A DNA stretch of 64,000 bases from a bacterium (GTDB taxonomy: Bacteria > Acidobacteriota > Blastocatellia > HR10), in the NCBI GenBank assembly GCA_041640655.1, contig JBEPZV010000005.1:32001-96000 (forward strand), written 5' to 3'. Both the position numbers and the translations under genes were made by a program. Below the pieces are notes generated by a model. It saw only the letters and a list, made by a program, of their open reading frames with translations. It was not told the origin of the DNA and did no database searches. This document shows, one piece after another, positions 10,158 through 62,000 of the stretch (position 1 is the first letter of the stretch; every line of letters starts with the position of its first letter).

Positions 10158-10213
10158 CGCTCTCCCTCCCGACGGGGCCGATTATACCACATCAGGTCGA
10201 AATCTTAGGGAAC

Positions 10214-10242
10214 TTGCCCTCCCCATTCCGCGTTGATATGCT
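10214..10242 (+). promoter_or_regulatory. Putative sigma70 promoter for the M16 peptidase pair
   Basis: TTGCCC-N17-TATGCT. Confidence 0.45.
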
Positions 10243-10347
10243 TGGTTCGCAGGTTATGAACGGAGGGCTTCCAGGAGGCGAGCCGCCTGGCGATCTTCGT
10301 CGAGTGTGGTTTCGCCTTCGGGAGGTGCCCGATCGGGAGGGGGACCG

Positions 10348-13211: not shown

Positions 13212-13284
13212 AGGGCGGCAAGGGCTATCGGCCGAGGGCGCGTGATCTGCCAGCTGGAACCAGAGAACAGGCGAGACGCGCTCG

Positions 13285-13968: not shown

Positions 13969-14081
13969 GGGCATGGACTTCGATGTGAAACGAATGCTCA
14001 GGGGGAACACCCTGTCAGCTTGGCCCCGCTTCGTCGCTCGCGATATACTTAAGGCGCGACGCGCTCTGGGAAGAAAACGGG

Positions 14082-14543: not shown

Positions 14544-14772
14544 TCGCTTCGTCTCCGAATTGAGGCCGTCCCCCGTATGGGCGAAGCGTGGACCTTGGCG
14601 CTCACGTGAACGTGATCTCGTGCGAGGAGTGCACAGCAACTTGCAGGGCCTCATCTGGCGTGGCCCAGTGGTTGCGCCTGTTGGTATGCTCCCAAGCAGG
14701 GAGCTGAGGCGAGCACCGGCGCAGGAAATCCGCAGTGGCTGGCGCTCTTTGTCGCCGAGAGGGAGGTGAGGG

Positions 14773-15255
14773 ATGGCGCGACGTCATGAGAGCCTGATCC
14801 CGCTCTCGCATGGGCACCATCACGGACTGGTCCTGAGCCTTCGCGTGAAGCGCGCATTCGCTCGCGGCTCGCCCGATGCGGAAGGACTCCGGGAGCTGAC
14901 GCGCGCGGTCGTCGCCTTCTTCGAGAGTGATCTTGTGCCGCACTTCGCTGCCGAGGAGGAGGGGCTCTTCCCCATTATGGAGGCGAACCTTGGACGCCTC
15001 GCGCTCATTGAGGAATTGCGCGAGGAACACAGCCGCTTCCGCGCCTGGGTCGAAGAGTTGCGCCGCTCGATGGAGACTGCTTCTTCAGCGGAGGCGCTTC
15101 AGGCCTTCGGTGCGCTTCTTCACGATCATATTCGGAAGGAGGAGCGGGTCTTGTTCCCGATCTTCGAGCAGCGAATGCCACCGGAGGAGGCCCGACGAGC
15201 AGGCGAAGCGATCGCGGGGCGGTTGGCCATCCTCTCCCCACGCGATGGGGGATGA
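14773..15255 (+). CDS. Hemerythrin/HHE cation-binding domain protein
   Basis: LIPLSHGHHHGL, HFAAEE, EEH, HIRKEERVLFP motifs; GGAGGTG RBS. Confidence 0.88.
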   Translation: MARRHESLIPLSHGHHHGLVLSLRVKRAFARGSPDAEGLRELTRAVVAFFESDLVPHFAAEEEGLFPIMEANLGRLALIEELREEHSRFRAWVEELRRSMETASSAEALQAFGALLHDHIRKEERVLFPIFEQRMPPEEARRAGEAIAGRLAILSPRDGG

Positions 15256-31090: not shown

Positions 31091-31527
<437 letters not shown>

Positions 31528-31582
31528 AACCGTGCCGCTGTCCTTCGGGGATTCACCCAAAGCTCCGGCAGCCTTGCGGCCA

Positions 31583-33091
31583 TCACGTGGACGGTGCGGG
31601 AGAGAAGCCTTTTCGGCGAACCTTCTCCCACGCCGGCTCTCGGCCGCGCAGCAGATCCCACAGAACGCCCACTTGCCACAGGGCGAGCAGTTGGCGATAT
31701 CCGAGATGCGAGAGAATGGTGAACAGCAGCAGCTTCAGCGTGTCCTTCGTGCTATAGGTGAAGAGCGAATGGTACCCCGAACGATACGCGGCCTCCGACC
31801 AGATGCCGAAGAGGATCGCCGACGTGGAGACGAAAATTCCGTAGAGAATCGCCGAGAGGAAGAAGAGGATCGCGTATTCGACGCTCAGGAGGCCCAAGGG
31901 GATGCAGATGAGAAGGATCACATAGCCGCCGAGTTCGATCACGGGGCCGAGGATCTCGAAGAGCAATTGATAGGGCATGGCCAGCCATCCCGTCCGTCCG
32001 TATCGCGGATTGAAGAGCATATCGCGGTGAAGGATGAGGAGATTTTCGATGAGCCCTCGATACCAGCGCTTTCGCTGCCTCCGCAGATCGGCGAGCGTCT
32101 CCGGCACCTCGGTCCATGCGATCGGATAGGGGAGGAAATCCACACGTCCCTCGATCCGCTTGTCATAGATGTAGCGGTAGAGCCGGAGGATGATCTCCAG
32201 ATCTTCGGTGATCGTCCGCGAGGCGCGGCGAGCGTACTCGCGCCCGAGCCGCGTGCGCATGTTCTCGGTGAGGAAGCCGCCGATGCGAATGAGCGCATCC
32301 CGGCGATAGAGGGCGAAGACACCCGAGAGGATGAGCAGCGCATTCCACGCGGCCAGCGCCGTTCGCCCCATGGTGAAGGAGCGGAGGTATTCGACGAACT
32401 GAAGGAGCACGAGAGGGTGTCGAGGCAGTTGCCGCGGGCGCACGCGCCCGGACGCCGTCGTGCGTCCATTCGCGACGCTGATTTGTCCGCCGATGGCGAG
32501 GATCTTCTCCGGAGCCTTCTGCACAGCCGCGATGAGCTGGATGAGTGCTTCCTCATCAATGAGCGAATCCGCGTCCACCGTGCAGACGTACGGCGAGAGC
32601 GCCACATTGATTCCCGCGTTGAGCGCATCGGCTTTGCCCCCACTCTCCTTATCCACGAGGATGAGGCGCTGAACATGAACCGGCCGCTCGCCGGTGGCTT
32701 CGTAAAGGCCTCTTATGGGAGCGGTCTCCAGCGGAGTCTCATAGAGGAGATCCCGCCGCGTGAGACGAAAGGCCTCAATGAGGACGTCCCGTGTGCGATC
32801 CGTCGAACCGTCGTTGATCACGATGATCTCCAGACGCGGATACTGCAGGCGCAAGAGAGCGCGTACGGATTCGACGATCGTCCGCTCCTCATTGTGGGCC
32901 GGCACAAGCAGTGAGATCGGGGGCGTGTAGGGAGAGGCGTGGGCGGACTCCGGATCGAGCGCGAACCGCTCCCGCAGCAGGAGGCGGATGCGCCGGAAGG
33001 CGGTGAGCATGAGGAGGAGATTCACCGTGTTGTAGAGCAGCGTGTAGCCGATGATGAAAAGTTGAGTGGCGATGATGACTTCGATGAGCAT
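31583..33091 (-). CDS. Processive GT2 polysaccharide synthase (PgaC/IcaA/cellulose synthase-like)
   Basis: N-terminal TM; PAHNEE, NDGSTD, GGKADALN, VDADS, ITEDLE and QRKRW (D,D,D,QxxRW); C-terminal TMs. Alternative start at 33142. Confidence 0.9.
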   Translation of the reverse strand: MLIEVIIATQLFIIGYTLLYNTVNLLLMLTAFRRIRLLLRERFALDPESAHASPYTPPISLLVPAHNEERTIVESVRALLRLQYPRLEIIVINDGSTDRTRDVLIEAFRLTRRDLLYETPLETAPIRGLYEATGERPVHVQRLILVDKESGGKADALNAGINVALSPYVCTVDADSLIDEEALIQLIAAVQKAPEKILAIGGQISVANGRTTASGRVRPRQLPRHPLVLLQFVEYLRSFTMGRTALAAWNALLILSGVFALYRRDALIRIGGFLTENMRTRLGREYARRASRTITEDLEIILRLYRYIYDKRIEGRVDFLPYPIAWTEVPETLADLRRQRKRWYRGLIENLLILHRDMLFNPRYGRTGWLAMPYQLLFEILGPVIELGGYVILLICIPLGLLSVEYAILFFLSAILYGIFVSTSAILFGIWSEAAYRSGYHSLFTYSTKDTLKLLLFTILSHLGYRQLLALWQVGVLWDLLRGREPAWEKVRRKGFSPAPST

Positions 33092-33145
33092 GAGTCGCTC
33101 CCATCTCCTCCGCCCCACCCTCCCGCGGGCAGGGCGGATCATGCG

Positions 33146-34024
33146 TCATCGGTAGAGAATCCAGAGGACCATAGCGCCATAGAGAAGAATCGTGATCAGT
33201 AGCGGGCGATCCGTCAGCAGCGCCGTCTCCGGATTCCCTCCCTCCTCTTCGCGATACACGAGATACAGATAGCGAAAGATGCCGTACAGGACAAGCGGGA
33301 TCGTATATTTCAACGCATCGGTGTGGAGTCGGGCGATCGTTTCGCTGGAGAGCGTATAGAGCGCGTACGTGACGATGGTCGCAGACGTCACCATGGCGAT
33401 CATCTGATCCAGGAGGGGCGTGTTGTACAGGGCCAGGCTCGCCCGATGCTCGGCGGCCGATTCGTTGAGCGCGAGCAGCTCGTGCCGACGCTTGCTCAAT
33501 CCCAGGAAGAGCGCCAGCAGCAAGGTGCAGATGAAGAACCAGGGCGAGAGGGGGACGGCGACGGCCTCTCCCCCAGCGACGGCACGCAAGACGAATCCGG
33601 CAGCGATGGCGAAGACATCGAGGATCACGATCCGCTTCATCCAGAGGGAATAGGTGATCTGCAGCAACACGTAGCTGAGCGCTGTGATCCCGAAGGCCGC
33701 ACTGAGCCGGAACGCGAGCGCGAGCGCGACCAACAGGACAAGTGCGCACACCCTTGCGGCGAGGCGCGGTGAGAGCGCCCCGGACGCCAGCGGTCGGTGC
33801 GCCTTTCGCGGATGAAGGCGATCCCGCTCGATGTCGCGCAGGTCGTTGAACACGTATATGCCTCCGGAGAGCAGGCAGAAGATCGCGAAGGCGGCCACGG
33901 CTCGGAGCGCGCGCTCCACCTCCAGCAGATGCTGCGAGAAGACGAGAGGGGCGAAGAGGATGAGGTTCTTCGTCCAGTGGTGCGGACGAAACGAGCGCCA
34001 AAGCAGTCGCAGCGTCTCGCGCAT
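33146..34024 (-). CDS. UbiA-family decaprenyl-phosphate phosphoribosyltransferase (DPPR synthase-like)
   Basis: RPHHWTKN, YVFNDLRDIERDRLHPRKAHRPLASG, ILDVFAIAAGFVLR, KRRHEL, GIFRY. The ATG overlaps the upstream stop (TGATG). Confidence 0.88.
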   Translation of the reverse strand: MRETLRLLWRSFRPHHWTKNLILFAPLVFSQHLLEVERALRAVAAFAIFCLLSGGIYVFNDLRDIERDRLHPRKAHRPLASGALSPRLAARVCALVLLVALALAFRLSAAFGITALSYVLLQITYSLWMKRIVILDVFAIAAGFVLRAVAGGEAVAVPLSPWFFICTLLLALFLGLSKRRHELLALNESAAEHRASLALYNTPLLDQMIAMVTSATIVTYALYTLSSETIARLHTDALKYTIPLVLYGIFRYLYLVYREEEGGNPETALLTDRPLLITILLYGAMVLWILYR

Positions 34025-36300
34025 CAGAAGAGCCACTGCCAGAAGATGAAGGCCCGCCACGTCCGTTGCGTGAGCGTATCCCGCCAGTAACGCGCTTCCA
34101 CACCGAGGCGCGAACGGGTCCCTATCCACGAAGCGAGCCGAGCGGCGGCTTCCTGCGCCCAGTAGCGGGCCGTGGCCTCATCCGACAGCCAAGCGTAGCC
34201 ATAGCGGAGCTCGTAGGACCATCGCGGACGGGCCTCTTGCTTGAGGGCGATGTAGGGCATCACGGTCCGAATCGTCAGCGTGTTGTATCGAAGCGCATCG
34301 CGGGCGTACCAGTCTCGAAAGTACGATGTCCCGAGTTCCACCACACGAAGAGCGCGGGGCCGGTAGCTCATCAGGGCGCGCGCGGACCATTGCCAGTTTC
34401 GATCCTGATACCAGGTGCGCGCGAGGTCGGCGCGAAGCGACCATTCCGGGTGTGGTTCCCAGCGCGCCGCGAGGAAGGCCTGATGAACGCGCAGAAAGTC
34501 CAGCGTGTTCTCCGGTTTCAAAAAACGCGCCTGGAGGGGGATCAGGCGATAGCCCACGATCGCGGCCTTCCGGGCGTCCTCATAGCGCAGGAAGGCGTGG
34601 ACGGCATGCGTGCGATTCCCATCCGAGTATCGCGCGAACGCATATTCCGTTCGCGTCGAGAGCGTGGGGGAGAGGCGTCGGTCATAGGCAGCCCCTACAC
34701 GGTTCTCGACGAAGATCCCGAATCGCACGTCGGCGGCGAAGCTCCGTCCCAGAAAAGGACCCCGACGGAAGTCAACAGCGAAGCGGTCATTCGGGGCGCT
34801 CCAAGAGAGATTCGCAGCGAGGGTGAGGAAGTCCTCCTCTGGGACCGATCCCGTCGCGTTATTTTGAAAGAGAGAGGCCCCGATCTCACCGGTGAGCGAC
34901 CAGCGCGGAGAGAGCTGGCCTTCCAGCCCGAGAGCGGGCGTCCAGATGGTGAAGTCGTAGATGTCGAAGCCGCCCGATCGGTTCACGACCTGATCCCGAG
35001 CCCCTCGGAAGCTTCCGTGAAGGGCCCACGTCTCGCCCAAGGGGTAACGCGCGCGCACCGTGGCGTGTTCGAGGCGATATCGAATGCGCGTCACCGGGAT
35101 CTCGAAGATGCGATCGGCGCGTCCCTCCAGGACGTCGGTCTCCTGGCGCTCATAGGACAGCTCGAGCGTCGGGTGAAGGAGGGGCTGCAGCCGCCAATAT
35201 CCCGCCAGGGCAGTCTCCTCTTGGGGAGCGCGTTCGAGTGCGCGTTGGTATTCCTGCAGGGCTTCGCGCCGCTGGCCGCGTCGCTCCAGGAGTTGACCGC
35301 GAAGCGCCGCGACTTCCGGATGCGTGGGATCGAGCGCGCGCGCGCGATCGAGCCACTGTTCCGCCTGCGAGAGGTCTTCTCGCGCGAGGGCGATGCGGGC
35401 CAGGCCGAGCAGAGCTTCCACATGTCGGGGCTGCAGGCGCAGCGCTTGTCGAAAAGCGTCCTCCGCGGCGCGCAAGTCCCCTCGCCATCGGCAGAGCGTT
35501 CCGATCCAGAAGTACGCCTCCGCATCTTGTGGCTGCCGATCCGCCACCTGCCGGTAGAGTTCCAGCGCGCGCTCCACCTTCCCCGAGCGGCGATATGCGT
35601 CGGCCAGAGCGCGAAGGAGCGCCACATCCTGAGGGGCTTGAGCCGTCGCGCGCGTATAGGCCGCGATGGCGTCTCGCACGCGCCCCTGAGCCATGCGCAG
35701 ATCTCCCAACCACCGATCGCGCCCGGGCACTTCCGGGTGCTCCTGGAGCCATGCTTCGGCCTCCTGAAAGCGCCGGGTGCGCAGAAGTACCGATATCCAG
35801 AGTTCGATGGCTTCCTCACTCTGAGGAGCGGCAGCCAGCGCAACGCGCACGTCGGCCTCGGCGTCTGCCCATCGCTCCATGTGAAGGAAAACACGGGCGC
35901 GTCCCAAGCGCGCATCCACATGCTGCGGGGCTTGTGCGAGCACGCGGCCATAGGCGGCCAGCGCATCCTCCACGTCCCCCTTCCATCGGTGCAGCGTAGC
36001 GATCCAGAAGGTGGCCTCCAGGTCATCGGGAACGCGAGCCAACACGGCTTGATAATGCGCGAGCGCTTCATCCCATCGTCCTTGTCGGCGAGCGACCTCC
36101 CCCAAGAGGCGCCAAACATCCGGGTCTTGCGGATACGCGGCCTTCAGCTCGTGCAAGCGTCGCGCTGCTTCCTCCAACTCCCCGCGCTCGATGAGCTGCC
36201 GGATGGGCTCCAGTGGAGCTTGCGATACCCCGTGGGCGAAGGCACCGTCACCGTTCATCGCTCGGCCTATGAGCAGAAGAATCAGCAGGACGCCACTCAT
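34024..36300 (-). CDS. TPR-repeat outer-membrane beta-barrel protein (PgaA/BcsC/YaiO-like exporter)
   Basis: Signal peptide; ~350 aa of TPR repeats; C-terminal amphipathic beta strands rich in Y/W/R ending in WQWLF. Confidence 0.75.
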   Translation of the reverse strand: MSGVLLILLLIGRAMNGDGAFAHGVSQAPLEPIRQLIERGELEEAARRLHELKAAYPQDPDVWRLLGEVARRQGRWDEALAHYQAVLARVPDDLEATFWIATLHRWKGDVEDALAAYGRVLAQAPQHVDARLGRARVFLHMERWADAEADVRVALAAAPQSEEAIELWISVLLRTRRFQEAEAWLQEHPEVPGRDRWLGDLRMAQGRVRDAIAAYTRATAQAPQDVALLRALADAYRRSGKVERALELYRQVADRQPQDAEAYFWIGTLCRWRGDLRAAEDAFRQALRLQPRHVEALLGLARIALAREDLSQAEQWLDRARALDPTHPEVAALRGQLLERRGQRREALQEYQRALERAPQEETALAGYWRLQPLLHPTLELSYERQETDVLEGRADRIFEIPVTRIRYRLEHATVRARYPLGETWALHGSFRGARDQVVNRSGGFDIYDFTIWTPALGLEGQLSPRWSLTGEIGASLFQNNATGSVPEEDFLTLAANLSWSAPNDRFAVDFRRGPFLGRSFAADVRFGIFVENRVGAAYDRRLSPTLSTRTEYAFARYSDGNRTHAVHAFLRYEDARKAAIVGYRLIPLQARFLKPENTLDFLRVHQAFLAARWEPHPEWSLRADLARTWYQDRNWQWSARALMSYRPRALRVVELGTSYFRDWYARDALRYNTLTIRTVMPYIALKQEARPRWSYELRYGYAWLSDEATARYWAQEAAARLASWIGTRSRLGVEARYWRDTLTQRTWRAFIFWQWLF

Positions 36301-38942
36301 GTCCCCTCCCTCACTAAACGAAAATCCCTCACGATGATCTCTCCCGTCCCGATGCGCTCATCCGGGTCGTCATCAATGACCAGATGAACCGTTCGGACAT
36401 CGGCGAGGGTGAAGCCTTTGGTCTTCCACTCCGGCCGGGTGAGATCCACGCGCACCGTCTGCCAGCCCGGGGACAGCGCCCGAAGGGAGAGTCGAAATCG
36501 GGCGTACTGCTTCGGATCGAGATTCTTCAGGTAGACGAAGAGCAGATCCGGTGCCCCTGAGGAGAAGAGGCGAAATTCCAGCCAGCGAGCCGTGGTCCAA
36601 TCGGTGAGCTCAACACCGGCCAGAATCTCGCCATAGTCATTTTCGCGCGTTGTGAATCGCCAGCTCATGCGGACGCCTCCTTCGGCCGGACCGCGCATGA
36701 GCGCGCATCCGCTGACTTCGAGATATACCTGCCACGCCAAGGGATCGTTCAATTCGGGGAAGGCGTGCGTCGGCTCCCCGTCAGGCCATGCGGCGGGCGC
36801 GCCGGAGGCTTCCGCATGAAAGCGTGGACGCAGAAGCGCCACCGTCGGCCCCCACGTCCGCACGACCTCGAAATCTTCGGGATGCGTGCGAATCCACTCG
36901 CGGACCGGGTAGGGTGCGTCGTATGTCGGCGGATCGTAGAAGAAGACATAATCCACCTTCTGCTCGGTGAGCAATCGCCGCCACTGCGCGTAGGTCGTCG
37001 CGCGCGGCAGATGGGCGAGCTTCACGAATTCCCAGGTCGGGATGTGAACGAGCCGGTTCGTATGGTCCCATCCGTAGAGCAGCGCGGCGAAATCCGGCAC
37101 AGTATATGCGATCGTGCGGTGCCGAATGTGGTCGGCGATCCAGACCAGAGCATCTATCACGGGGCCGTAATCCTGAATGAGTGGATAGTTGGCGGTTGCT
37201 TCCAGTCCACTTCGATGCGTGCGCAGAAGGCGAGGGATAGTCTGGCCGCATCCCCACGTCCTATTCTCGACCAGATGTCCACCGGTCGCCAGGACGGCGA
37301 AGAGCGCGGCCACGATCGCGAATGCGGTGACGATCGCGCGGCCGGATCGGCTGAGCTCGTTCAGGAGGGCGAGCCATCCGAGGATGGCGATGCCGCAGAC
37401 GGCCAGGATGTAGCGGGGCTCGCGATATGGGTTCAAGATCCACCAGAGCGCGGTGCTGAGCGGCAGCGTCATGAGCGTCCAGAAGAGGAGCCGGTGGCGC
37501 CGTCGCCACGCGCGCGCGAGCATCAGGAGGGTGGCGATCCCCCCCACGGCGAATTGTGGGCCGAAGCCGTTCGACCAGCCGTAATGCACGGGGACGTCCG
37601 CTTCCGGCGGATAAAATCGCGGATCGTCCACATACGCCTCGCGGAATGGGTAGAGGAACCACTGCCACCGGTGCCGGACGAATCGCCGTTCGTGCAGCTC
37701 CGAATGGTGCATGGAGACGGGGCCGTCCAGCACGACCCGCCCGCCGATCTCCACGCGCACGGGATAGACGGGATTCCCGAAAGCGATCGCGTTGCGGATC
37801 ATCCAGAATCCTCCACCCAGCAGCACGCACAGAAGCAGCGTCCCGGTTCGCGGCCACACCCAGCGCAGGTGCTCCCCGATAGGGAATTCCCAGCGGTCCA
37901 CGCCGAAGAGGAAGACAGAGAGCAGCGGGAGCGAGAGGTAGAGGAACGTGAACTTGGTGCCGAGCAGCAATCCGAAGGCGAGCGCGAACAGATGCAGCTC
38001 CAGCGCGCGCCGGGTTTGGAGATGGCGGACGAGGAAGACGAGCGCCGTCAGGAAGAAGGCGGCTGCGATCACATCCACCATCGTCGTCAGGGATTGGAGC
38101 ATGACCAGCGGCGTGAAGACATAGAGCGGCAGCGCCAGCGCGATCCCCTGCCGGAACCCGAATGCGTGCGCGAGACAGCGAACGGCCCATCCCCCCATGA
38201 AGGCGAAGGGGATTTGGACGGTATTCAGATGGACGAAAATCGCCTTGTTCTCTCCGCCGAGGAGATAGATCCACAGCGTGAGCAGTTCCCCCGCCTTCGG
38301 GAAATACGGTTGAATCCACGCGAATGGGAAGGGATCGAGATTATGGTTCTGCGCGTAGGTGAGGACATCGAGCAGATGATAGTTGAGCGAATCCACATCG
38401 TGGGGCGGCACGGCGCGTTCTATGTAGAGGATGAAGCCATACACGGCGGTCGTCAGCACGCCGAGCCCCCATCCTAGGGGTGAGGGTCGCGCGCCGACCG
38501 AAGCGGAAGCGATATGCGCCCTCGCACGCAGCCAATAGCCGAGCCACAGGACGGCGACGACGGCCAGGTTGGTCACGATGAGCGTCGAAGCCGTCAGGTG
38601 ATTGAGGACCCCCAAGGTGATTTGTGAGACGACCATTTGGAGAGAAGTGAGCAGGGCTGCCGCCAGGATCCGATAGGGACTCTCAAGGGGAAGAGCTCCA
38701 GTCCACGACCAATGCGCGGCGAATACAAGCCCCATCAGGATCCAGGGCGTCAGGAGCGGCCATTCCGATGAGGTGAGCGCCACGCGAACGAGCGCGCCCC
38801 CACTCAGCACGGTGAGGCCGAAAAGGACATCTGTAGCTCGAATGAGTGGCTCGCGCCGCCTCGCCTGCTCCGGGAGCTGTTCAGGCCTGGGAGCGCGCGC
38901 TTCTGAAGCGCTTCCACGCTGCAGCGGTCTCCCCACGCTCAT
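36297..38942 (-). CDS. Multi-pass GT-C-like (ArnT/PMT) glycosyltransferase with a C-terminal carbohydrate-binding-like domain
   Basis: Over 12 TMs; first loop PPHDVDSLNYHL; YFPKAGE; GTKFT; EPRY; C-terminal beta-sandwich (DWTTARWLEF...GWQTVRVDL). Confidence 0.65.
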   Translation of the reverse strand: MSVGRPLQRGSASEARAPRPEQLPEQARRREPLIRATDVLFGLTVLSGGALVRVALTSSEWPLLTPWILMGLVFAAHWSWTGALPLESPYRILAAALLTSLQMVVSQITLGVLNHLTASTLIVTNLAVVAVLWLGYWLRARAHIASASVGARPSPLGWGLGVLTTAVYGFILYIERAVPPHDVDSLNYHLLDVLTYAQNHNLDPFPFAWIQPYFPKAGELLTLWIYLLGGENKAIFVHLNTVQIPFAFMGGWAVRCLAHAFGFRQGIALALPLYVFTPLVMLQSLTTMVDVIAAAFFLTALVFLVRHLQTRRALELHLFALAFGLLLGTKFTFLYLSLPLLSVFLFGVDRWEFPIGEHLRWVWPRTGTLLLCVLLGGGFWMIRNAIAFGNPVYPVRVEIGGRVVLDGPVSMHHSELHERRFVRHRWQWFLYPFREAYVDDPRFYPPEADVPVHYGWSNGFGPQFAVGGIATLLMLARAWRRRHRLLFWTLMTLPLSTALWWILNPYREPRYILAVCGIAILGWLALLNELSRSGRAIVTAFAIVAALFAVLATGGHLVENRTWGCGQTIPRLLRTHRSGLEATANYPLIQDYGPVIDALVWIADHIRHRTIAYTVPDFAALLYGWDHTNRLVHIPTWEFVKLAHLPRATTYAQWRRLLTEQKVDYVFFYDPPTYDAPYPVREWIRTHPEDFEVVRTWGPTVALLRPRFHAEASGAPAAWPDGEPTHAFPELNDPLAWQVYLEVSGCALMRGPAEGGVRMSWRFTTRENDYGEILAGVELTDWTTARWLEFRLFSSGAPDLLFVYLKNLDPKQYARFRLSLRALSPGWQTVRVDLTRPEWKTKGFTLADVRTVHLVIDDDPDERIGTGEIIVRDFRLVREGT

Positions 38943-38946
38943 CCCT

Positions 38947-39081
38947 TCATCCTCCCAGCCATTGGCGCAAAACTCCCACCGTATCCTTTGCCAGTGGCCA
39001 GTGCACGACGATGTACACGACGAGCGCTATACCGAGCACAAGAATGATCAGCTGTTCGCTCCATGAGGATCGCGGCCTCAT
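38947..39081 (-). CDS. Unannotated 44-aa single-TM peptide
   Basis: MRPRSSWSEQLIILVLGIALVVYIVVHWPLAKDTVGVLRQWLGG*. The ATG overlaps the HEAT gene stop (ATGA), and its 3' end provides the GGAGG RBS for the next gene. Confidence 0.7.
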   Translation of the reverse strand: MRPRSSWSEQLIILVLGIALVVYIVVHWPLAKDTVGVLRQWLGG

Positions 39082-42000
39082 CCCCGCGCGCTCTCCTGCA
39101 GCAGGCGGCGCACGGCGTCCTGGACCTCAGGGGCTGGGTCTCGTTCTAATGCGTGAAGCACCGTGCGGGGATCCACTGCCCACAGCGTTCGCGCCGCCTC
39201 AATCCGAAGTTGAGGATCTGGATCTCGCAGGGCTTCGAGAAGGATCTGCTGCGCTCCGCTCTCCTTCCTGTTGGCCAGCGCCATGATCGCCGCGCGTCGC
39301 ACCTCGGCATCGGGATTCTTGATCGCCCGTTGGAAGATAGGGATCGCGTGCGGGGATCCGAGAAGCTCCAGCGCACGGAGCAGGCCGAGCAAGATGGGCT
39401 TCTCTTCGGCGGTGAGCGCTAACGAGATTAACGGTTGCGGGTCCTTCTGATGAATCTGTGCGAGCGCGTGGGCGATGGCGTCTCGATAGGGAGCGTCGGC
39501 GATCTTGAGGTGCTCCAGGAGCACGGGTACAGCTTTCGCCTCACCGAGGTGTCCGAGGATCTGAGCGGCCTCGGCGCGAACGCGCTGGTCGGGATCGCGC
39601 AGCGCCTTCAACGCGGCGACACTCACATCAGCGGGACGGCCGATTCGAGCGAGGACGCGCATGGCTTCCGCGCGCACCTGAGCATCGGGATCGCGGGCGA
39701 GCGTCTCCTGAACAAGCTCGAAATGCCGACCATCACCGACGGCCTCAAGGCATCGCAGAGCATACCGACGCGCCTCGCTGTCCTGGCTGTGACGGAGGGT
39801 GTGGACATAGTGTTCGATCATGCGATCAAAGTTGGGGAGTAGCAGGTCTCCCACAGCTTCCACCCGAAAGAATGTCTGGACGCGCCGGATCACCTCCTCC
39901 GATTCATGCTCCAGCACGGCTCGAACGGCTGCCGAGACGGCCGGTTCCCTGATGCGGGCGAGCGCCTGCGGCAGGCGAGCCGTGCTCGGCAGGAGGGCGA
40001 GACCGATCACAGCCCCCGCTTGTACGACGGGAGATGGGTCTTCCAAAAGCTCGGCCAACCGCTCGCTCGCGTCGGGATTGCCCAGCTTGCCCAAAGCGAG
40101 CGCCGCGCGTTGCTTGACCCGTTCGCTCGGATCCCACGTCGCCCTGAGGACCGCCGGAAGGGCTGTCGAATCGCCAATACTGGCGAGGGCATCCAGAGCT
40201 GCCATGCGCACCGATTCCGCGGGGTCGTTCAGAGCTAGGAGCAATGCCTTCACAGCTCTCGGGTCATCTCGCCGGTCCAAGGCGCGCGCGGCGGCTGCGC
40301 GAACGTGGGCGGAGGGATCATGCAGAAACGTGATGAGCGCCTCCAGGGCCGACGCTTCCGCCCGGAGGGCGAGCACGCGCACGATCCCGCGGCGCGCTGT
40401 TTCACCCTGAAGGTCGCGCAGCTCCTCAAGGAGCGTGCGCACGTCCGTCGCCAGGTGGGCGAGCGCCTCCGCCGCCGCCTCTTGCAGGGCTTCGTCGGTC
40501 GTATCCAGAAGCTTCATCACAGGCGTCAAGGGGCCCTGGTATCCCAGGGCTTTGAGACTGCGCACGGCGGCCTGGCGAACCGAAGAGTGCGGATCCCCCA
40601 GCGCCGCGAGCAGGGCCGGGATGACCGATGGGTCCTGGAAGGCGCCGAGCGACGCCGCAGCTTGAGCCCGCACATCGGCGATCGGATCGGTGAGCGCTTC
40701 CCGCAGCGGCTCGACGGCGCGCGGATCCGGGATGCGACGCAGAATGGTGGCTGCCGCTCGGCGAATGAAAGCGTTCGGATCGCGCAATAGCTCCAGGAGC
40801 TGGGGCAGGAAGGCCATCAGGTCAGCGACCTCCATGTTCTCAATCGCCTCGGTGGCCGCCTCCCGTACTACGGCTTCTTCATCCCCCAAGCCTTCGACGA
40901 GCTGAGGGAGAGCCTCCTTCGCCCGCAGCTTCCCCAGCGCCGCGATCGCATGCGCGCGAACGGACCATTCCCGATCCCTCGCGGCTGCTCGCAACGCTTC
41001 GAGAATCCCAGGGGATCGTTCCCCGAGCTCTCCGAGGACTTGGCAGACTTGAGCGCGCACGCGGAAGTCCGGATCGTTCAAGCTGGAGATGAGGGATTCC
41101 CGAATGCCCGCCTTCCCGATCAGGACGAGTTTTCGTCGCGCGGCCGCGCGCTCGACCGCATCCTCGCTCTTGAGGCGCTCCAATTGCATCTGCACATATC
41201 CCAAGCGTTCCAGCACGGCAGCCGTCCGGCGGCGCACATCGGGATCGTCATCGGTCAATGCTCCTTCGAGGAGCTCGCCGACCGTGGGGCCGATCATCTC
41301 CAGCGCTTCGATGGCGCGCGCGCGGACTATCGGATCGGGATCCGCGATGGCCAGCCGCAGCGATTCTAGAGCCTTCTCATCGCCGATCTTCCCCAACGCC
41401 GCCGCCGCCTCCATGCGCACCAGCGCCGAGGGATCCCGCAACGTTCGCTCCAGAAGGGGATTCACGGCCCGTTTGTCCGCGATCCGCGAGAGGGCGCGCG
41501 CGGCCGCCGCTCGCACAGATTCCGCGCGATCCCACAAGCACTGAATGAGGCCCAACACGGCCGCCCGGGATCGAAGCTGACCGAGGATGTCAGCCGCCCA
41601 GGCGCGCAGGTCATCCGAATCGGGATCTCGAAGCGCGTCAATCAGCGGAGCTTCGGCCAGCGGGCCGAACGCGATGAGCGCTTCGGCCACTCGCGGGGAG
41701 ACCCATTTGTCCGGCGCTCTCAATGCCTCGATCAAGGGGGGAATCGCCCGCGGATCGCGGATCATCCCCAGCGCGCGAGCGCAGGCGAGCTTGACGTCCT
41801 CATCCTCGTACGGATCGCGCATGGCCTCGAGCAGAATCGGAACGGCGCGCGCGCTGCCGATCTCTCCCAAGCGTCGCGCGGCTCCGGCTCGAATGCTCCA
41901 TCGCGATGAATGACGCACGTCGTGCAGGTACTGATCCAAAAGACCGAGGTGCTCGTAGAGTTTTTGGAACTTCGCTTGCAGGGAGACGTCCGCCAGCTCT

Positions 42001-42266
42001 ATGCTCTCGTTCAGCAGCCACTCCAGGTGCTTCATCCCGAAGGTCTTCTTGAGCTGCTCGGCCAGCTCCAGCAGGGCGTCTTCGCTCATGTGATCTAATC
42101 CGTTCAGCATGGCGTGATAGCGCCGTCGGAGCCGGGCCAAATGCCACTGCCGCCCTCGCCGCCAGGATTCGCGCACCAGGACGCTCACGATCGCCAGAAT
42201 GAGCCCTCCGGCGATCACCACGATGCTCCAGATCAACCACGTCCGCAGCGATTCCGAAGGGATCAC
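39078..42266 (-). CDS. Membrane-anchored giant HEAT/PBS-lyase repeat protein
   Basis: One N-terminal TM followed by a basic stretch, then ~900 aa of L.D....VR..AA.ALG repeats; the GTG start overlaps the kinase stop. Confidence 0.88.
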   Translation of the reverse strand: MIPSESLRTWLIWSIVVIAGGLILAIVSVLVRESWRRGRQWHLARLRRRYHAMLNGLDHMSEDALLELAEQLKKTFGMKHLEWLLNESIELADVSLQAKFQKLYEHLGLLDQYLHDVRHSSRWSIRAGAARRLGEIGSARAVPILLEAMRDPYEDEDVKLACARALGMIRDPRAIPPLIEALRAPDKWVSPRVAEALIAFGPLAEAPLIDALRDPDSDDLRAWAADILGQLRSRAAVLGLIQCLWDRAESVRAAAARALSRIADKRAVNPLLERTLRDPSALVRMEAAAALGKIGDEKALESLRLAIADPDPIVRARAIEALEMIGPTVGELLEGALTDDDPDVRRRTAAVLERLGYVQMQLERLKSEDAVERAAARRKLVLIGKAGIRESLISSLNDPDFRVRAQVCQVLGELGERSPGILEALRAAARDREWSVRAHAIAALGKLRAKEALPQLVEGLGDEEAVVREAATEAIENMEVADLMAFLPQLLELLRDPNAFIRRAAATILRRIPDPRAVEPLREALTDPIADVRAQAAASLGAFQDPSVIPALLAALGDPHSSVRQAAVRSLKALGYQGPLTPVMKLLDTTDEALQEAAAEALAHLATDVRTLLEELRDLQGETARRGIVRVLALRAEASALEALITFLHDPSAHVRAAAARALDRRDDPRAVKALLLALNDPAESVRMAALDALASIGDSTALPAVLRATWDPSERVKQRAALALGKLGNPDASERLAELLEDPSPVVQAGAVIGLALLPSTARLPQALARIREPAVSAAVRAVLEHESEEVIRRVQTFFRVEAVGDLLLPNFDRMIEHYVHTLRHSQDSEARRYALRCLEAVGDGRHFELVQETLARDPDAQVRAEAMRVLARIGRPADVSVAALKALRDPDQRVRAEAAQILGHLGEAKAVPVLLEHLKIADAPYRDAIAHALAQIHQKDPQPLISLALTAEEKPILLGLLRALELLGSPHAIPIFQRAIKNPDAEVRRAAIMALANRKESGAQQILLEALRDPDPQLRIEAARTLWAVDPRTVLHALERDPAPEVQDAVRRLLQESARG

Positions 42267-44605
42267 AGGTTGAGCACCTCTCGAATGCGACTGGTGACCT
42301 CTTCGATGTCGAACGGCTTCACGATGTACGCCTCCGCTCCGACTTCAAGTCCCCAGAACCGATCGCTCGCCTGCGAGCGCGCCGTCAGCATGAGGATCGG
42401 AATATGGCGCGTTCGCTCGTCGGCCTTCAGCCGCTGGCACACCTGATAGCCGTTGATGTCCGGGAGCATGATGTCCAGGATGATCGCATCCGGGAGCAGC
42501 TCACTCGCCTTGCGCAACGCGTCCATCCCCGTATACGCCGCTTCGCACGCGAACCCCTCGCTCTGCAGATGGAAGGTCAGCGTCTCGACCATATCGGGTT
42601 CGTCTTCGACGATGAGGATCCTGGGCTTTCGCTCGCGCTGAACCTCAGCCGGGAGCAAGATGGAGAAGCAACTGCCTTTCCCAACCTGGCTCTCCACCCA
42701 GATCCGCCCCTTGTGGGCTTCCACCAGCGCCTTCGTGATCGCCAGTCCCAGGCCCGCTCCCTGTCCTTGAGCCGTCGGCCCGCGATAGTAGCCCTCGAAG
42801 ATGCGTTCGCGCGCCTCCTCCGGAATGCCGATGCCCGTATCCGCGACGTCCACACGAACCCAGGCGGCCTCGGGATCGGCCGGGTCCGTGTACGGCATGG
42901 CGCGAACCCACACGCGTCCGCCCTCGGCCGTGAACTTGATCGCATTCTGCAAGAGATTGTCGAGGATCTGCTCCAATCGCCTCGCATCCGCATAGACCTT
43001 GGGGAGCGGCCCATCGAGCTGCTTCTCCAGCGTGATCCGCTTCTGCTCGGCGAGGGGGTGAAAGGTCTGCAGCACAGCATCCAGGATGGGCTCCAGATCC
43101 AACAGCTCAATTTCCAGCTCGAGCTTCCCCCGCCGAATGCGATCCAGATCCAAGATGGTGTCCAGAAGGGAGGCCAGTTTGTCGGCATTCTTGTTGGCGA
43201 TCGAGAGGAAGCGCGACTGCTCCGGCGTCAGAGCGCCCGCCTTTTGGGCGAGCATGATACTGAGGGCATTCTTGATGAGCGATAAGGGGGTTCGCAGATC
43301 GTGCGAGATTTGCGAGAGCAAGTCTTGCCGCATCCGGTCCAGCTCCCTCTCCCGCGTCACATCGTGGAAGGTGAAGACCGTCCCCCAGGGCTCTCCCGTC
43401 CGGCCGCGGACGCGACTGACGTTGACCTTCACGATCCGCGGAGCGGGCGTCTCCACACGGTATTCGAAGTTGCGTGGCTCCTCGCGCTCCTCCTGCAGCA
43501 GGTCACATAGGCCCAGTTCCGCGCAGCGGGCCAGAAATTGCTCCGCCGTCGCATCGCCCCCCAGGCCTAAGATCTCCTTCGCCGCTCGATTGATCACCCG
43601 CACCTGACGCGCCTCATCAACCATGACGACGCCCTCGCTCATGCTCTCCAGCATCGCGCTGATCTTCTCATGCTCGGCAGTCGCCATCTCGCGCAATCGG
43701 CGGAGCGAGGTCACCAGTTGATTCGTGACGATGCGCGCGAAGGCCTCCTCTTCGGGCGTGAACGCTTCCGCTTGCGCGCGGGTGAGGCAGAGGAGGCCGA
43801 GGATCTCTCCGTCCTCCTTCAGAGGAAGGCTCAGGAAGGCCTGAGGGTCCTCACGAACCAGGACCTGGCTCGGGAGGGTCCCGGGTTCGAGCACGCGGAC
43901 AGTCGCCTCCGCCTCCAGAGGCCGAAACTCCCGCAGGCTCTCCAGCGCGCGGTGCTTCACGCGTTCGAGAAAGACCTGGCTCACCGCATGACGGGGGATC
44001 ATCACCAGCTCCGCCGACGGCTCGGCGAGCAACACGCTCAGCACATCATACGAGATCGCTCGAGCCAACGCTTCCGCGATCACCAGGAACAACTGGTGCG
44101 GCTCGAGCACGCGATTGAGCGACGCCGTCAGTTCGTACAAGAGATGGAGCTCGGCGATACGCTTCTCCAGCATCTGGAGCAATCGCTTCTTCTCTTTCTG
44201 CAGGCGCCACCGATCGAGCGCGCGCGTCGCCACCTTGAGTAGTTGCGCGTGGTCGAAGGGCTTCGCGATGTAATCATAGGCGCCTCGCCGCACGGCCTCA
44301 ATGGCCGTCTCCAAAGAGGCGTATCCAGTGATGAGGATGACCTCGGTCTCCGGGCTCTGCTCCTTGATCTGCGTGAGCAGCCGTAGGCCGTCAAGGCCGG
44401 GGAGATTGATGTCCACGATCGCCAGGGCGATCTCCCCACGCTCCATGAGGCTCAGCGCCTCCGCCCCATCCGACGCCGTGAGCAGACGGGTGATGCCCAA
44501 ATCCGCCCAGTCCTTCACCTCCGGGGCGGCGAGCAACCCTTTCAGAAGCTCCTTCAGCAGGGCCCTGATGCTCTCCTCATCGTCAACGATCAAGATAGCA
44601 CCCAT
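42263..44605 (-). CDS. Hybrid histidine kinase REC-GAF-PAS-HisKA-HATPase-REC
   Basis: N-terminal REC (ILIVDDE, IVDINLP), GAF, PAS (SMSEGV), SHDLRTPL, NLLQNAIKF, DTGIGI, GAGLGL, C-terminal REC (LDIMLP); GGAGG RBS. Confidence 0.92.
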   Translation of the reverse strand: MGAILIVDDEESIRALLKELLKGLLAAPEVKDWADLGITRLLTASDGAEALSLMERGEIALAIVDINLPGLDGLRLLTQIKEQSPETEVILITGYASLETAIEAVRRGAYDYIAKPFDHAQLLKVATRALDRWRLQKEKKRLLQMLEKRIAELHLLYELTASLNRVLEPHQLFLVIAEALARAISYDVLSVLLAEPSAELVMIPRHAVSQVFLERVKHRALESLREFRPLEAEATVRVLEPGTLPSQVLVREDPQAFLSLPLKEDGEILGLLCLTRAQAEAFTPEEEAFARIVTNQLVTSLRRLREMATAEHEKISAMLESMSEGVVMVDEARQVRVINRAAKEILGLGGDATAEQFLARCAELGLCDLLQEEREEPRNFEYRVETPAPRIVKVNVSRVRGRTGEPWGTVFTFHDVTRERELDRMRQDLLSQISHDLRTPLSLIKNALSIMLAQKAGALTPEQSRFLSIANKNADKLASLLDTILDLDRIRRGKLELEIELLDLEPILDAVLQTFHPLAEQKRITLEKQLDGPLPKVYADARRLEQILDNLLQNAIKFTAEGGRVWVRAMPYTDPADPEAAWVRVDVADTGIGIPEEARERIFEGYYRGPTAQGQGAGLGLAITKALVEAHKGRIWVESQVGKGSCFSILLPAEVQRERKPRILIVEDEPDMVETLTFHLQSEGFACEAAYTGMDALRKASELLPDAIILDIMLPDINGYQVCQRLKADERTRHIPILMLTARSQASDRFWGLEVGAEAYIVKPFDIEEVTSRIREVLNL

Positions 44606-44788: not shown

Positions 44789-44865
44789 TGGCGCCCCGAG
44801 CGGGACTCGAACCCACAACCTACGGCTTAGAAGGCCGTTGCTCTTTCCAGTTGAGCTATCGGGGC
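44789..44865 (-). tRNA. tRNA-Arg (anticodon TCT)
   Basis: GCCCCGA acceptor stem, anticodon arm ACGGC-CTTCTAA-GCCGT, GGTTCGAGTCC, encoded CCA. Confidence 0.96.
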
Positions 44866-44926: not shown

Positions 44927-45004
44927 TGGTCGGGGCGGGCGGATTTGAACCGCCGACCTCCTGCTCCCAAGGCAGGCGCGCTCGCCAGGCTGCGCCACGC
45001 CCCG
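44927..45004 (-). tRNA. tRNA-Pro (anticodon TGG)
   Basis: CGGGGCG acceptor stem, anticodon arm CCTGC-CTTGGGA-GCAGG, GGTTCAAATCC, encoded CCA. Confidence 0.96.
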
Positions 45005-59036: not shown

Positions 59037-62000
59037 ATGCGCGCGGTCGGCTCGTGGCGGGTTCGATCCCTCGGCGTCGTGATTCTCGCCCTGTTTGCGA
59101 TCTTCTCCGCTCTCATCGTCCACCACATTGGGGCGTCGTCCCAATCTCGGGAGAGATGGCCGAGTCACATCGGTATCCTCGCTCAAGGGCGCGGGGGACC
59201 GGAGTTGACGGTACAGAACGGGCGGAATCTTCCCGAGGATCCTCCGGGCGGAGGGGGACGCTTCGGGGCATCATGGCCGACCAGACTGGCTCGTGGTGAC
59301 TTCAATGGCGATGGCTTTCAGGACCTGCTCATCAGCTATGCCCGCGTGGGTGGAGGAGAGTTGGTGCTTCGGTTGGGGAACGGGCAAGGGGACTTCACGA
59401 CGCCACTGCGGATCCCGCTGACCGGACAAGAGCCGTCGGCGCTACTGGTCGAGGATTTCAACCAGGATGGTCTCCCGGATGTCGCCGTCGGATATACGGA
59501 TCAGTTGGAGGTCTCGATCTATCTGGGGACGGGCCGCGGGACGTTCCAATGGGCGGAAGACGTGCGTCTTGGTCTGGCGGTGAGTGGGCTCGCTTCAGGG
59601 GATTTCAATGGTGACGGAGTGCCGGACCTTTTGGTCTCTTCTTCAGATGCTCCTTTCTTGGGCCTGCTGCTCAATGATGGGCGAGGGGGATTCCAGCCCT
59701 CGCGGTTCTTCTCGCTGAGTGCAGACGGCTCGGTCTTCGCGCTGGGGGATATTCGGGTTGCGGACATGGATGCTGATGGGCGATTGGACGCGATCGTGCT
59801 CTATCGCGGGGAGACGCCTGGGGTGGCTGTCCTCTACGGGATGGGCGAGGGGAAGTTCGCCTATCCGCAGCTTCTGCCGGTCGGCGTTGCTCCGGAAGGT
59901 TTGACTGTGGGTGACTTCGATCAGGATGCGCGGATGGACATCGCGGTGACGGATGCCGCCGGCGGCAGCGTCTTCGTGCTGCGCGGAGCAGGAGACCGAT
60001 CCTTCTCCTCTCCCGTGAGCTTTCACGCGGGGACGTGGCCCGTGCAACTCGCGATCGCGAATCTGAATAACGATGGGTATCCCGATCTGGCCGTCGTTGA
60101 TCGCGGGAGCAATCGCATCGTGATCTTGTTGGGGAACGCTCGCGGAGCCTTCGATCGTTCCGTGAGCTATGATGTGGATGGTCCCCCGGTCGCGATTGTA
60201 GCCGGGCGATTCCGCCACGTGGCGCTTGATGACCTGGTCGTCGCCAAACAGAGCGGGGCGACCGTCGCCATCGCCCTCAATGCGCCGCCGACGATCGTCG
60301 TCACGACGACCGCCGATGAGGTCCGACAAGATGGGCGCGTGAGCTTGCGCGAGGCGATCCTGGCGGCCAATGGGAATCCGCCGAATTCAGACGTCCCATC
60401 GGGACGAGGGAATGCTCCGGACGTGATCGGCTTCGATCTGCCGGAGGCGGAGAAATCCGGAGGGGTCTTCGTCATCCGCGTGAGCGCGCAGCGTGGTCCT
60501 CTTCCACCGCTCACTGATGGCGGTACGACCATTGATGGGACGATGCAACGAGGATTCGCGGGCACACCACTCATTGTGCTGGACGGCTCAGAAGCGGGGA
60601 GTGTGGATGGGCTGACGATCGCGTCGAGCCTGAACGTCGTGCGCGGATTGGTCATCAGCCGATTCGGTGGTCATGGGGTGCGGATCGTCGGCAGTGATGC
60701 ACCGGTCACGGGGAACATCATCGCCGGCTGTTACATCGGCACGGATGCCTCTGGACAACAGGCGTGGGGCAACGGGCTGGCCGGTGTTCAGCTCTTCGGC
60801 GATGGTGTGAGCAATACGCTCATTGGGGGAACGGCGGCAGCCGATCGGAACGTCATCTCCGGCAATGGCGGCGATGGGATCGAAGTGCGGGGACTCGCTC
60901 GGAATACACAAATCGTGGGGAACTACATCGGCGTCGCTGCTGATGGGCGGACGCCTCTGCCCAATGGCGGCAGTGGCATCTTCATTGCCGGAGCCGATAA
61001 TGTGACCGTGGGCGGAACGGCGAGCGGAGCTGGGAACGTGATCTCGGGGAATCTCCGTCATGGCCTCCAGGCGCGCGGGAGCACGGGGCTGCGCATTCAG
61101 GGGAACTTCATCGGTGTGGAGGCGCGCGGCGCATCGGCCGTGAAGAACGGCGGAGACGGGATCTCTCTGGTGGAGGTCATCAACGCGCAGATCGGCGGCG
61201 TCTCCTCCTCGGCGCGAAATGTGATCGCCGGGAACGATGGGCATGGGGTGATGCTCCTCCGCAGCTCGGCCAATAAGGTTCAGGGGAACTACATCGGTGT
61301 GGACGCCGAGGGGCGTCAAGCGCTCGGCAACGGCGGGGCGGGCATTCAGGTGGATCTCAACTCGCCGAACAATCTCATTGGCGGCATCGTCGAAGGGGCG
61401 GGCAACGTCATCTCCGGAAATCGCGGGAGCGGGATCTTCATCGCGCCGAGTTCGCTGGGGGCGCAGATCTTCGGGAATCGCATCGGCGTGAACGCGACCG
61501 GGCGGGCGGCGCTCGGCAATGGCGGGGATGGGATCACGGTCAATGGTGGAGGGAATCATCAGATCGGAGGCGATGACAGCATCGCGCGCAACGTCATCGG
61601 GGGTAATGCCGGCGAGGGGGTGCGGCTGCTCAACGCCGTGGATACTCGCCTCGTGGGGAACGTCATCGGGGTGGATGCGGGAGGCACGATCCCGTTGCCT
61701 AACGGTGGGAGTGGCGTGTTGATCCTCTCCACGGAAGGCTCGGCATCTCGAAATGCCGTGCTTCGAAACGTGATCGCCTATAATCGCGGGGCTGGCGTGC
61801 GCATCCTCGGTTCGGGAAGCGGCAATCGCCTCTCCCAAAATTCCTTCTTCCAGAATGAGGGCTTGGGCATTGACCGAGGGGGACAAGGGATCGTCCCTCA
61901 GATCACAGCGGTCACGGAGAACGGTGATGGCACGGTGACGGTGAGAGGGACGTTCCCGGCGCCTGCTCCCGCGGGAGCCGTCATCGAGGTCTATTTAGCT

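Follow-up and report, generated by a model that had tools for sequence, protein, structure and literature searches.

What do seven genes packed between the RNase P RNA gene (rnpB) and a tRNA-Arg gene of an acidobacterium build together? They form a co-oriented block on the minus strand of a 64,000-nucleotide stretch of DNA, referred to here as the window, which belongs to a genome (G000) of 3.13 Mb in 128 contigs that is 89.8% complete. Near-identical DNA is found mostly in sequencing runs labeled as hot-spring metagenomes, and the sources of close homologues are assigned to Acidobacteriota/Blastocatellia. The block encodes a soluble hybrid histidine kinase, a HEAT-repeat protein, a 44-amino-acid peptide with a single transmembrane segment, a glycosyltransferase of the GT-C fold, an outer-membrane protein with a tetratricopeptide repeat (TPR) arm and a β-barrel, a UbiA-type prenyltransferase, and a family 2 glycosyltransferase (GT2). 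On balance, it is probably a synthase-dependent exopolysaccharide operon with periplasmic branching by the GT-C enzyme, composed of two units: a receiver–HEAT–GT2 synthase module and a GT-C plus barrel pair. The gene set, the folds, the conservation, and the recurrent linkage on which this reading is based are direct results of the analysis. The fold and linkage evidence upholds the overall architecture proposed in an initial annotation of the window, which was made from the sequence without database searches.

Recurrence of the GT-C and barrel pair beside HEAT–GT2 genes

The main argument that the GT-C/barrel pair and the HEAT–GT2 genes work together is their recurrent pairing. A word-based search retrieved only 12 GT-C relatives, and among 401 Acidobacteriota genomes scanned with a profile, four, counting G000, contain the GT-C family (E ≤ 1e-40). 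Five GT-C loci outside the genus are covered by 17–22 kb of sequence (L114, L151, L152, L153, and L154), and in three of them the GT-C gene, followed by the barrel gene, adjoins HEAT and GT2 genes. The metagenomic locus L114, whose GT-C is 32% identical to that of the window, carries a PF03706 gene, GT-C, TPR-barrel, a 363-amino-acid HEAT protein, and GT2, all co-oriented and nearly abutting; its TPR-barrel protein is 28% identical over 709 amino acids, a similarity that extends into the barrel. The order in L152, from genome G290, is receiver (REC), HEAT, GT2, PF03706, GT-C, and TPR-barrel, and that in L153, from G083, is PF03706, GT-C, TPR-barrel, REC, HEAT, and GT2. The two remaining loci are a second copy in G290 (L151) and a shorter relative in G312 (L154), and neither has a GT2 or barrel gene. 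Two short contigs with a GT-C of about 50% identity (L112 and L113) both place a GT2 gene directly upstream of GT-C. The initial annotation had treated all seven genes as one system: its GT-C, barrel, HEAT, GT2, and receiver components do recur elsewhere, whereas the DPPR synthase (UbiA) and the hybrid kinase were found linked to the system only at genus level.

Phylogenetic analysis of the GT2 enzymes was based on an 88-row tree (IQ-TREE in quick mode, with SH-aLRT as the sole support measure). Branches with SH-aLRT of at least 95 force four label changes among the GT-C-linked GT2s in these 88 rows. The genus clade is sister to GT2s from long-HEAT modules without GT-C in Myxococcota and uncultured bacteria (SH-aLRT 95), a placement with which FastTree agrees. 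An approximately unbiased (AU) test rejects monophyly of the GT-C-linked GT2s (ΔlnL 202.5, p 1e-18; LG+G4) on a 36-row subset, which leaves out 52 rows that are mostly Bacillota, Pseudomonadota, and near-duplicates of the genus. The GT-C-linked GT2s thus do not form a single clade, which means that the pairing originated or was retained more than once. Judged from gene order and the tree, the pairing of GT-C and barrel with HEAT–GT2 is recurrent, whether it was gained several times or lost several times. The new element is the joining of the GT-C/barrel pair to the core, and it is this combination, rather than any single part, that is novel. A literature search on GT-C enzymes with synthase-dependent exopolysaccharides found no description of this combination.

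At L114, L152, and L153, the gene directly upstream of GT-C (L114:9012-9998, L152:4552-5418, and L153:7784-8779) encodes a PF03706 protein, an MprF-type, flippase-like membrane protein (LPG_synthase_TM); genomes of the genus have the 44-amino-acid peptide in this place. The G290 cluster also has a MazF/PemK-like toxin gene just upstream (L152:87-704).

The GT-C enzyme and its companion peptide

The initial annotation called the 881-amino-acid protein a GT-C enzyme, and structural comparison agrees. According to a model of low confidence built on a 12-row alignment (pLDDT 59.9, pTM 0.54), the protein has the GT-C fold. When the model was compared with known structures by VIA-align, every match of the membrane domain (Z ≥ 9.7) was a GT-C enzyme: ArnT (Z 15.6, with 393 residues aligned over positions 152–709), Pmt4 (15.2), Pmt1/2 (15.0), ALG12 (14.5), and AglB (14.1), then EmbA/B (12.7), AftD (12.4), and AftB (12.3), as well as ALG9, STT3, DPY19, PglB, and AftA. 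Foldseek, used in addition, ranks EmbA/B/C first with full-length matches (E 2e-6 to 1e-4) at a sequence identity of 12%. The first ~150 residues form four extra helices, the GT-C core begins at about residue 150, and residues 721–881 form a β-sandwich resembling carbohydrate-binding module (CBM) family 11 (1v0a, Z 15.9, root-mean-square deviation 2.5, 147 aligned).

At the sequence level, the protein scores 19.6 bits against Pfam PMT_2, under the cut-off of 26.1, and has no match among PDB sequences at E ≤ 1. Some of its profile relatives, among them ones of ~620 amino acids, pass the PMT_2/PMT cut-offs (P0161, P0173, and P0185). An HMMER profile search places the protein in the GT-C superfamily, with 8425 matches at E ≤ 1e-3, 146 of them at E ≤ 1e-30, and ~16 full-length representatives. 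An aspartate, D184, in the motif PPHDVDS is nearly invariant in the 12 aligned sequences; it lies in the presumed first periplasmic loop, where pLDDT is below 50, so any correspondence to the catalytic aspartate of ArnT/PMT enzymes is tentative.

Such a protein need not decorate a polymer made by the GT2. It could act as a periplasmic polymerase or ligase, either assembling a second glycan out of lipid-linked units, as Emb/Aft enzymes do, or attaching the GT2 product to an anchor of lipid or protein; the barrel would then export the result. The best full-length Foldseek matches, EmbA/B/C, are polymerizing arabinosyltransferases with carbohydrate-binding domains; GT-C and barrel travel as a pair; and a flippase-like PF03706 gene lies directly upstream of GT-C elsewhere. 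However, fold matches cannot separate decorators (ArnT) from polymerases (Emb), and the pair adjoins a processive-type GT2, which would already supply a polymer, in three of the five loci described above. A polymerase or ligase role is regarded as rather unlikely, and branching of a GT2-made chain is preferred.

The peptide encoded between the HEAT and GT-C genes has a single transmembrane segment and a conserved YIxxHWPL motif. The contigs L112 and L113 contain, between GT2 and GT-C, a short weak match to the peptide with the HWPL motif (E 0.47), for which the support is positional. The possibility that the peptide is what is left of the PF03706 gene found ahead of GT-C in other lineages was rejected, with alignment z-scores of 1.6, −0.4, and −0.8 against shuffled sequences. 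A 658-amino-acid open reading frame (ORF) at locus L049 was likewise rejected as a GT-C relative (hhalign probability 0.05) and is probably spurious.

The outer-membrane exporter

The TPR protein is modeled with greater confidence (pLDDT 85.1) as a signal-like helix, 22 TPR helices (residues 31–375), and 20 strand segments (378–757) that end in a C-terminal phenylalanine. In a search of about 48,000 PDB representatives, the barrel matches OccAB1 (Z 17.4) and PgaA (Z 16.2, root-mean-square deviation 4.6, 253 aligned), while matches to PelB (Z 15.7) and BcsC (Z 15.2, with 450 aligned over residues 191–758) run across both TPR and barrel; Foldseek, too, aligns BcsC with both parts. These comparisons support the outer-membrane barrel anticipated by the initial annotation. 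The protein scores 70.3 bits against the PgaA equivalog TIGR03939, for which the cut-off is 366.65, and falls below the BcsC equivalog cut-off too. The barrel domain alone gives only sub-threshold Pfam matches (Phenol_MetA_deg, E 0.036; DUF3575, E 0.075).

A widespread receiver–HEAT–GT2 core

The GT2 enzyme has transmembrane segments at both ends, and its catalytic motifs, D111, D190/D192, E313-D314 (TED), and Q356-R357-x-R359-W360 (QRxRW), are invariant in 28 sequences. It belongs to Pfam GT2 families and matches Chitin_synth_2, and its score against PgaC_IcaA (TIGR03937) is 118.5 bits, below the cut-off of 422.3. Because the enzyme is under every equivalog cut-off and its NodC and Chitin_synth_2 matches are weak, it might make short NodC-like oligosaccharides, in which case the cluster would build a glycolipid or a signalling molecule. 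The large porin of the PgaA/PelB/BcsC type and the CBM-like domain fit a polymer instead, and an oligosaccharide product seems most improbable.

The GT2 family is large (5290 matches among 7999 scored candidates, at about 45–50% identity), spans many phyla, and reaches cultivable Bacillus and Paenibacillus. Eighty genome loci were retrieved with the GT2 family alignment (34–50% identity) and searched by tblastn with the window proteins. A HEAT protein adjoins GT2 in 29 of the 80, across many phyla, and TPR-only matches occur in 10; UbiA, GT-C, and the peptide are found in none. A Pfam scan of 33 ORFs from nine of these loci reveals a stand-alone REC directly upstream of HEAT, and HEAT directly upstream of GT2, in four of the nine (L024, L026, L058, and L085). 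Near the receiver–HEAT–GT2 modules of the scanned loci, there are often genes for kinases, CheA/CheW, or GGDEF-EAL proteins. A TPR or YaiO-type barrel protein follows GT2 at L055 and L100, and L049 has, between two receivers, a TPR protein that weakly matches the window barrel (E 8e-4). At L085 (positions 5822–15121), from a Solirubrobacterales metagenome-assembled genome, genes on the flanks of the trio encode a PAS-GGDEF-EAL protein, CheW, and CheA-like proteins, a setting that suggests chemosensory-type control of the synthase module.

The window operon matches this module in its GT2 family, in its membrane HEAT protein, and in the receiver upstream of HEAT. The kinase has the Pfam domain order REC-GAF-PAS-HisKA-HATPase-REC and no predicted transmembrane segment. 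Its C-terminal REC shares 48.7% identity with the stand-alone REC of L024 and corresponds to the stand-alone receiver of modules elsewhere. This REC abuts HEAT through the overlap of the two genes, as in the receiver–HEAT–GT2 layout. The HEAT protein contains 13 HEAT_2 stretches (E 5e-141), and its N-terminal ~420 amino acids align with the short HEAT partners at other loci. A single N-terminal transmembrane segment (residues 11–29) is followed by an arginine run, so the repeats are probably cytoplasmic. Unlike the module elsewhere, the receiver is fused to a kinase, the HEAT protein is long, and the peptide, GT-C, barrel, and UbiA genes are inserted between HEAT and GT2.

Pfam and NCBIfam searches agree with the domain calls first made for the seven genes. 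They detect no PilZ, GGDEF, CE4, or glycoside hydrolase domain in the seven proteins, and a PgaD-like gene was not found either. The initial annotation had likewise seen no PilZ/GGDEF receptor for cyclic di-GMP (c-di-GMP), and a cryptic site may exist all the same. By sequence, the receiver–HEAT–GT2 core is a widespread module in which a c-di-GMP receptor domain was not found. Control through the receiver adjoining the HEAT protein would fit the conserved REC–HEAT–GT2 adjacency. Literature searches on HEAT-repeat proteins with receivers and exopolysaccharide glycosyltransferases, or with synthase-dependent polysaccharides, found no description of this module.

UbiA and the lipid-linked donor

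The UbiA protein scores above the NF008977 cut-off (273.7 bits versus 234) and marginally above that of NF008978 (207.7 versus 207), with 86.9 bits for PF01040. Genes of the NF008977 type are above the cut-off in 61 of 151 genomes of the phylum; a looser tally of 73 of 151 includes G063 and G087, both of which are under it. Their contexts vary: a DprE1-like gene in a genome of the same class (L134), a PAP2 gene (L117), a Wzx-like transporter gene (L118), and genes for polytopic membrane proteins. In G083, the GT-C cluster is on contig 8 and UbiA on contig 28. A literature search on decaprenyl-phosphate phosphoribosyltransferases in Acidobacteria returned no paper.

At L117, L137, L143, and L124, the UbiA neighbors are polytopic proteins with 5–9 predicted transmembrane segments, with no Pfam match and no BLAST similarity to the window GT-C. 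They may be further GT-C-like partners.

These contexts bear on a reading in which UbiA and GT-C form an independent system for envelope or protein glycosylation, comparable to TfpW pilin arabinosylation or O-antigen ribosylation, and merely share the operon. It is in keeping with the broad and varied occurrence of NF008977-type UbiA, in contexts with DprE1-like, PAP2, and Wzx-like genes, and with the fact that UbiA is unlinked to the GT-C family outside the genus. Against it stand the stop/start overlaps throughout the operon, the repeated linkage of GT-C with HEAT–GT2 and a dedicated barrel, and the carbohydrate-binding-module fold at the GT-C C-terminus, and we consider it clearly unlikely. 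A GT-C that modifies the GT2 product remains the preferred reading, and the question becomes which sugar it would add.

The initial annotation had proposed ribose or arabinose. The DPPR-synthase type of UbiA stands, but arabinose is weakened by the search for DprE1, whose ALO domain (PF04030) is detected in none of four genus genomes (89.8, 98, 94, and 98% complete), although a Corynebacterium control is positive; DprE2 was not searched. Corynebacterium itself scores under the NF008977 cut-off. As DprE1 was not found, arabinose is unlikely and ribofuranose is the likelier side-chain sugar. A polyprenyl-phospho-arabinofuranose donor would require an epimerase unlike DprE1/DprE2. The arabinosyltransferases EmbA/B/C, AftD, AftB, and AftA among the top structural matches would suit such a donor, as would the DprE1-like gene beside UbiA at L134. 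Set against the missing ALO domain and a cluster in which Pfam finds no oxidoreductase, we judge this donor very unlikely.

Ribofuranose addition has a described counterpart. As outlined in a commentary on Kelly et al. 2024 (PMC11194591), a UbiA-type synthase (PPPRS) that uses phosphoribosyl pyrophosphate (PRPP), a MATE flippase, and a GT-C enzyme together decorate O-antigen with ribofuranose or xylofuranose in the periplasm, and ribofuranose addition proceeds without DprE1/E2. This pentofuranose system is the nearest precedent for a UbiA and GT-C pair that works with no epimerase. The two are alike in pairing a UbiA-type PRPP-using synthase with periplasmic GT-C addition of a pentofuranose to a finished glycan. 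They differ in that no phosphatase is fused to the window UbiA, which has a single domain, a MATE gene is missing from the operon, and the presumed acceptor is a synthase-made polymer rather than O-antigen. GtrA is absent from both the operon and the genus; the search for MATE was confined to the operon. Each genus genome has two to three unlinked PF03706 genes that may encode flippases.

Conservation within the genus and an empty site

The six large genes follow one another in the same order, at 68–98% amino acid identity, in all three genus genome stretches (L016–L018) and in all five long metagenome contigs (L104–L108). These are all the genus-level stretches long enough to hold the six, and shorter pieces (L019 and L109–L111) are consistent as far as they extend. 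Gene-order conservation at genus level is far beyond chance. The peptide is present between HEAT and GT-C in each of the 11 genus-level loci that cover its place.

GT-C is detected in five of six other genus genomes. The sixth, G006 (97% complete), has no GT-C match and no GT2 match at E ≤ 1e-30, and its site is empty: rnpB ends at C4:129006 and the tRNA-Arg region follows 11 bases on, at 129018. The 13.2-kb block is a clean insertion or deletion in the rnpB–tRNA spacer, present or absent as a unit, by gain or by loss. The indel is flanked by housekeeping genes for a KsgA-like methylase, RibD, a RadA-like protein, and an M48 peptidase. When the two borders are aligned with the empty site, no long flanking repeats are seen (no repeat search was run), and Pfam finds no integrase domain among the seven proteins. 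GC content is 0.61–0.67 across the window without a shift at the block, so foreign origin is not signaled by composition.

Gene boundaries, expression, and neighboring features

The coordinates of the block are given in Table 1. Neighboring genes overlap or nearly abut: kinase and HEAT share GTGA (42263–42266), HEAT and peptide share ATGA (39078–39081), the peptide stop is four nucleotides from the GT-C ATG at 38942, GT-C and TPR share ATGA (36297–36300), the TPR stop and UbiA start form TGATG (34022–34026), and three nucleotides separate the UbiA stop from the GT2 ATG at 33142. Coordinates and sequence bear out the seven co-oriented genes, tight junctions, and rnpB/tRNA-Arg borders of the initial annotation. 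Its peptide limits are corrected, and its starts are revised to a likely M36 for UbiA and a possible M18 for GT2. The kinase start is kept at M40, a likely position because alignments with homologues begin at residue 40.

Table 1. Features of the seven-gene block and its borders (window coordinates)
Feature	Coordinates	Strand	Basis or remark
RNase P RNA (rnpB), left indel border	31092-31530	+	Rfam RF00010, 270.2 bits
GT2, PgaC/chitin-synthase-like, membrane	31583-33142	-	Pfam GT2 families; possible start M18 at 33091
UbiA, DPPR-synthase type	33146-34024	-	Likely start M36 (34024); ORF open to 34129
TPR/beta-barrel outer-membrane export protein, 758 aa	34024-36300	-	AlphaFold2 model, fold matches
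GT-C glycosyltransferase, 881 aa	36297-38942	-	Fold matches
Peptide with single transmembrane segment, 44 aa	38947-39081	-	Sequence
HEAT-repeat protein, 1062 aa	39078-42266	-	Pfam HEAT_2
Soluble hybrid histidine kinase	42263-44605	-	Pfam; likely start M40 (44605); ORF open to 44722
tRNA-Arg(tct), right indel border	44789-44865	-	ARAGORN and Rfam
tRNA-Pro	44927-45004	-	

Eight low-depth contigs (2–13×) from metatranscriptome X20 fall in the barrel, GT-C, HEAT, and kinase genes, with no cover elsewhere, and one of them spans the kinase/HEAT junction (42120–42786). DNA carry-over is possible, and these contigs are a weak hint of transcription of the operon. Scans found four promoter-like sites where 1.7 ± 1.2 are expected, one of them upstream of M40 (44656–44628), and 11 terminator-like sites where 7.2 ± 3.0 are expected; neither count is given weight. 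In run X19, a low-depth contig (6.3×, with 21 letters on its short side) joins 32448 to 42377 and skips 9.9 kb, probably a chance or cross-organism join. Further along the window, a plus-strand gene (59037–63407) encodes a 1456-amino-acid protein with FG-GAP repeats, a NosD-like right-handed β-helix, and Ig-like domains, which is probably a large surface protein.

A proposed mechanism and the evidence against it

The identity of the polymer, its decoration, the donor, its flipping, and the phosphorelay control are inferred from these results. The GT2 enzyme, judged by its family, would polymerize and translocate a chain of β-linked hexose or N-acetylhexosamine. The membrane-tethered cytoplasmic HEAT protein may couple GT2 to receiver phosphorylation, as adjacency and topology suggest; the phosphorylated receiver would switch the synthase on in place of a c-di-GMP receptor, its state being set by the fused GAF-PAS kinase. 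On the periplasmic side, GT-C could bind the emerging chain through its CBM11-like domain and, perhaps together with the peptide, add side-branch sugars from a polyprenyl-phosphate donor, a role suggested by fold, CBM, and linkage. Within the genus, the donor would be polyprenyl-phospho-ribose(-5-P), made from PRPP by the in-operon UbiA, as its family score and the failure to find DprE1 suggest, and the added sugar would most likely be ribofuranose or ribose-5-phosphate. The TPR arm and barrel, by their fold, would then carry the polymer across the outer membrane.

Several observations weigh against this mechanism. UbiA occurs in none of the 80 GT2 loci and is missing from L114, L152, and L153; the GT-C family therefore does not need a UbiA-made donor. 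The upstream neighbor of GT-C in other lineages is the MprF-type PF03706 protein, and the operon itself has neither a flippase nor a 5-phosphatase, with only unlinked PF03706 genes and no GtrA to draw on. The GT-C model is poor and its active site unmapped, and L151 and L154 carry GT-C with no GT2 or barrel nearby. The polyphyly in the GT2 tree could reflect losses. Finally, the operon has no CE4 deacetylase or glycoside hydrolase, unlike typical Pga, Pel, and Bcs operons.

Relation to known systems and implications

The closest known secretion systems are PgaABCD, Bcs (BcsA/BcsC), and Pel (PelB). They and the window have in common a membrane GT2 bearing the D, D, D, QxxRW motifs, as well as a TPR arm joined to a β-barrel in the outer-membrane protein. 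In contrast to these systems, neither the GT2 nor the porin of the window reaches the equivalog cut-offs for PgaC, PgaA, and BcsC. Where PilZ, GGDEF, or PgaD would be expected, the operon has a receiver and a HEAT protein, and the periplasmic partner is a GT-C enzyme instead of a deacetylase or hydrolase. On the donor side, mycobacterial Rv3806c with Emb/Aft and TfpW of P. aeruginosa resemble the window in pairing a DPPR-synthase-type UbiA with a GT-C that bears carbohydrate-binding domains. Unlike the Rv3806c and Emb/Aft system, the genus has no detected DprE1-type gene, its UbiA belongs to the NF008977 subfamily, and its GT-C is distant from Emb in sequence.

Cellulose, poly-N-acetylglucosamine (PNAG), alginate, and Pel are modified in the periplasm by deacetylation, acetylation, epimerization, or phosphoethanolamine addition, and most are c-di-GMP-gated. 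The operon may represent a fifth flavor of synthase-dependent secretion, an idea put forward tentatively: a portable GT-C(CBM) plus TPR/barrel cassette, repeatedly plugged into a phosphorelay-gated receiver–HEAT–GT2 synthase, would branch a homopolymer with lipid-linked sugars in the periplasm before export, with the genus branch being ribofuranose derived from PRPP. If this is true, the operon would provide the first known case of a GT-C working on a synthase-made polymer, as well as the first of a synthase pathway whose gate is phosphorylation instead of c-di-GMP. GT-C branching would be a new kind of modification, and control by a receiver–HEAT switch would be new as well. Many phyla carry the core module, and its presence in cultivable Bacillus and Paenibacillus opens the question of control to bench work. 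The presence/absence polymorphism inside one genus offers a natural comparison. For hot-spring Acidobacteriota, the operon points to a specific matrix polymer.

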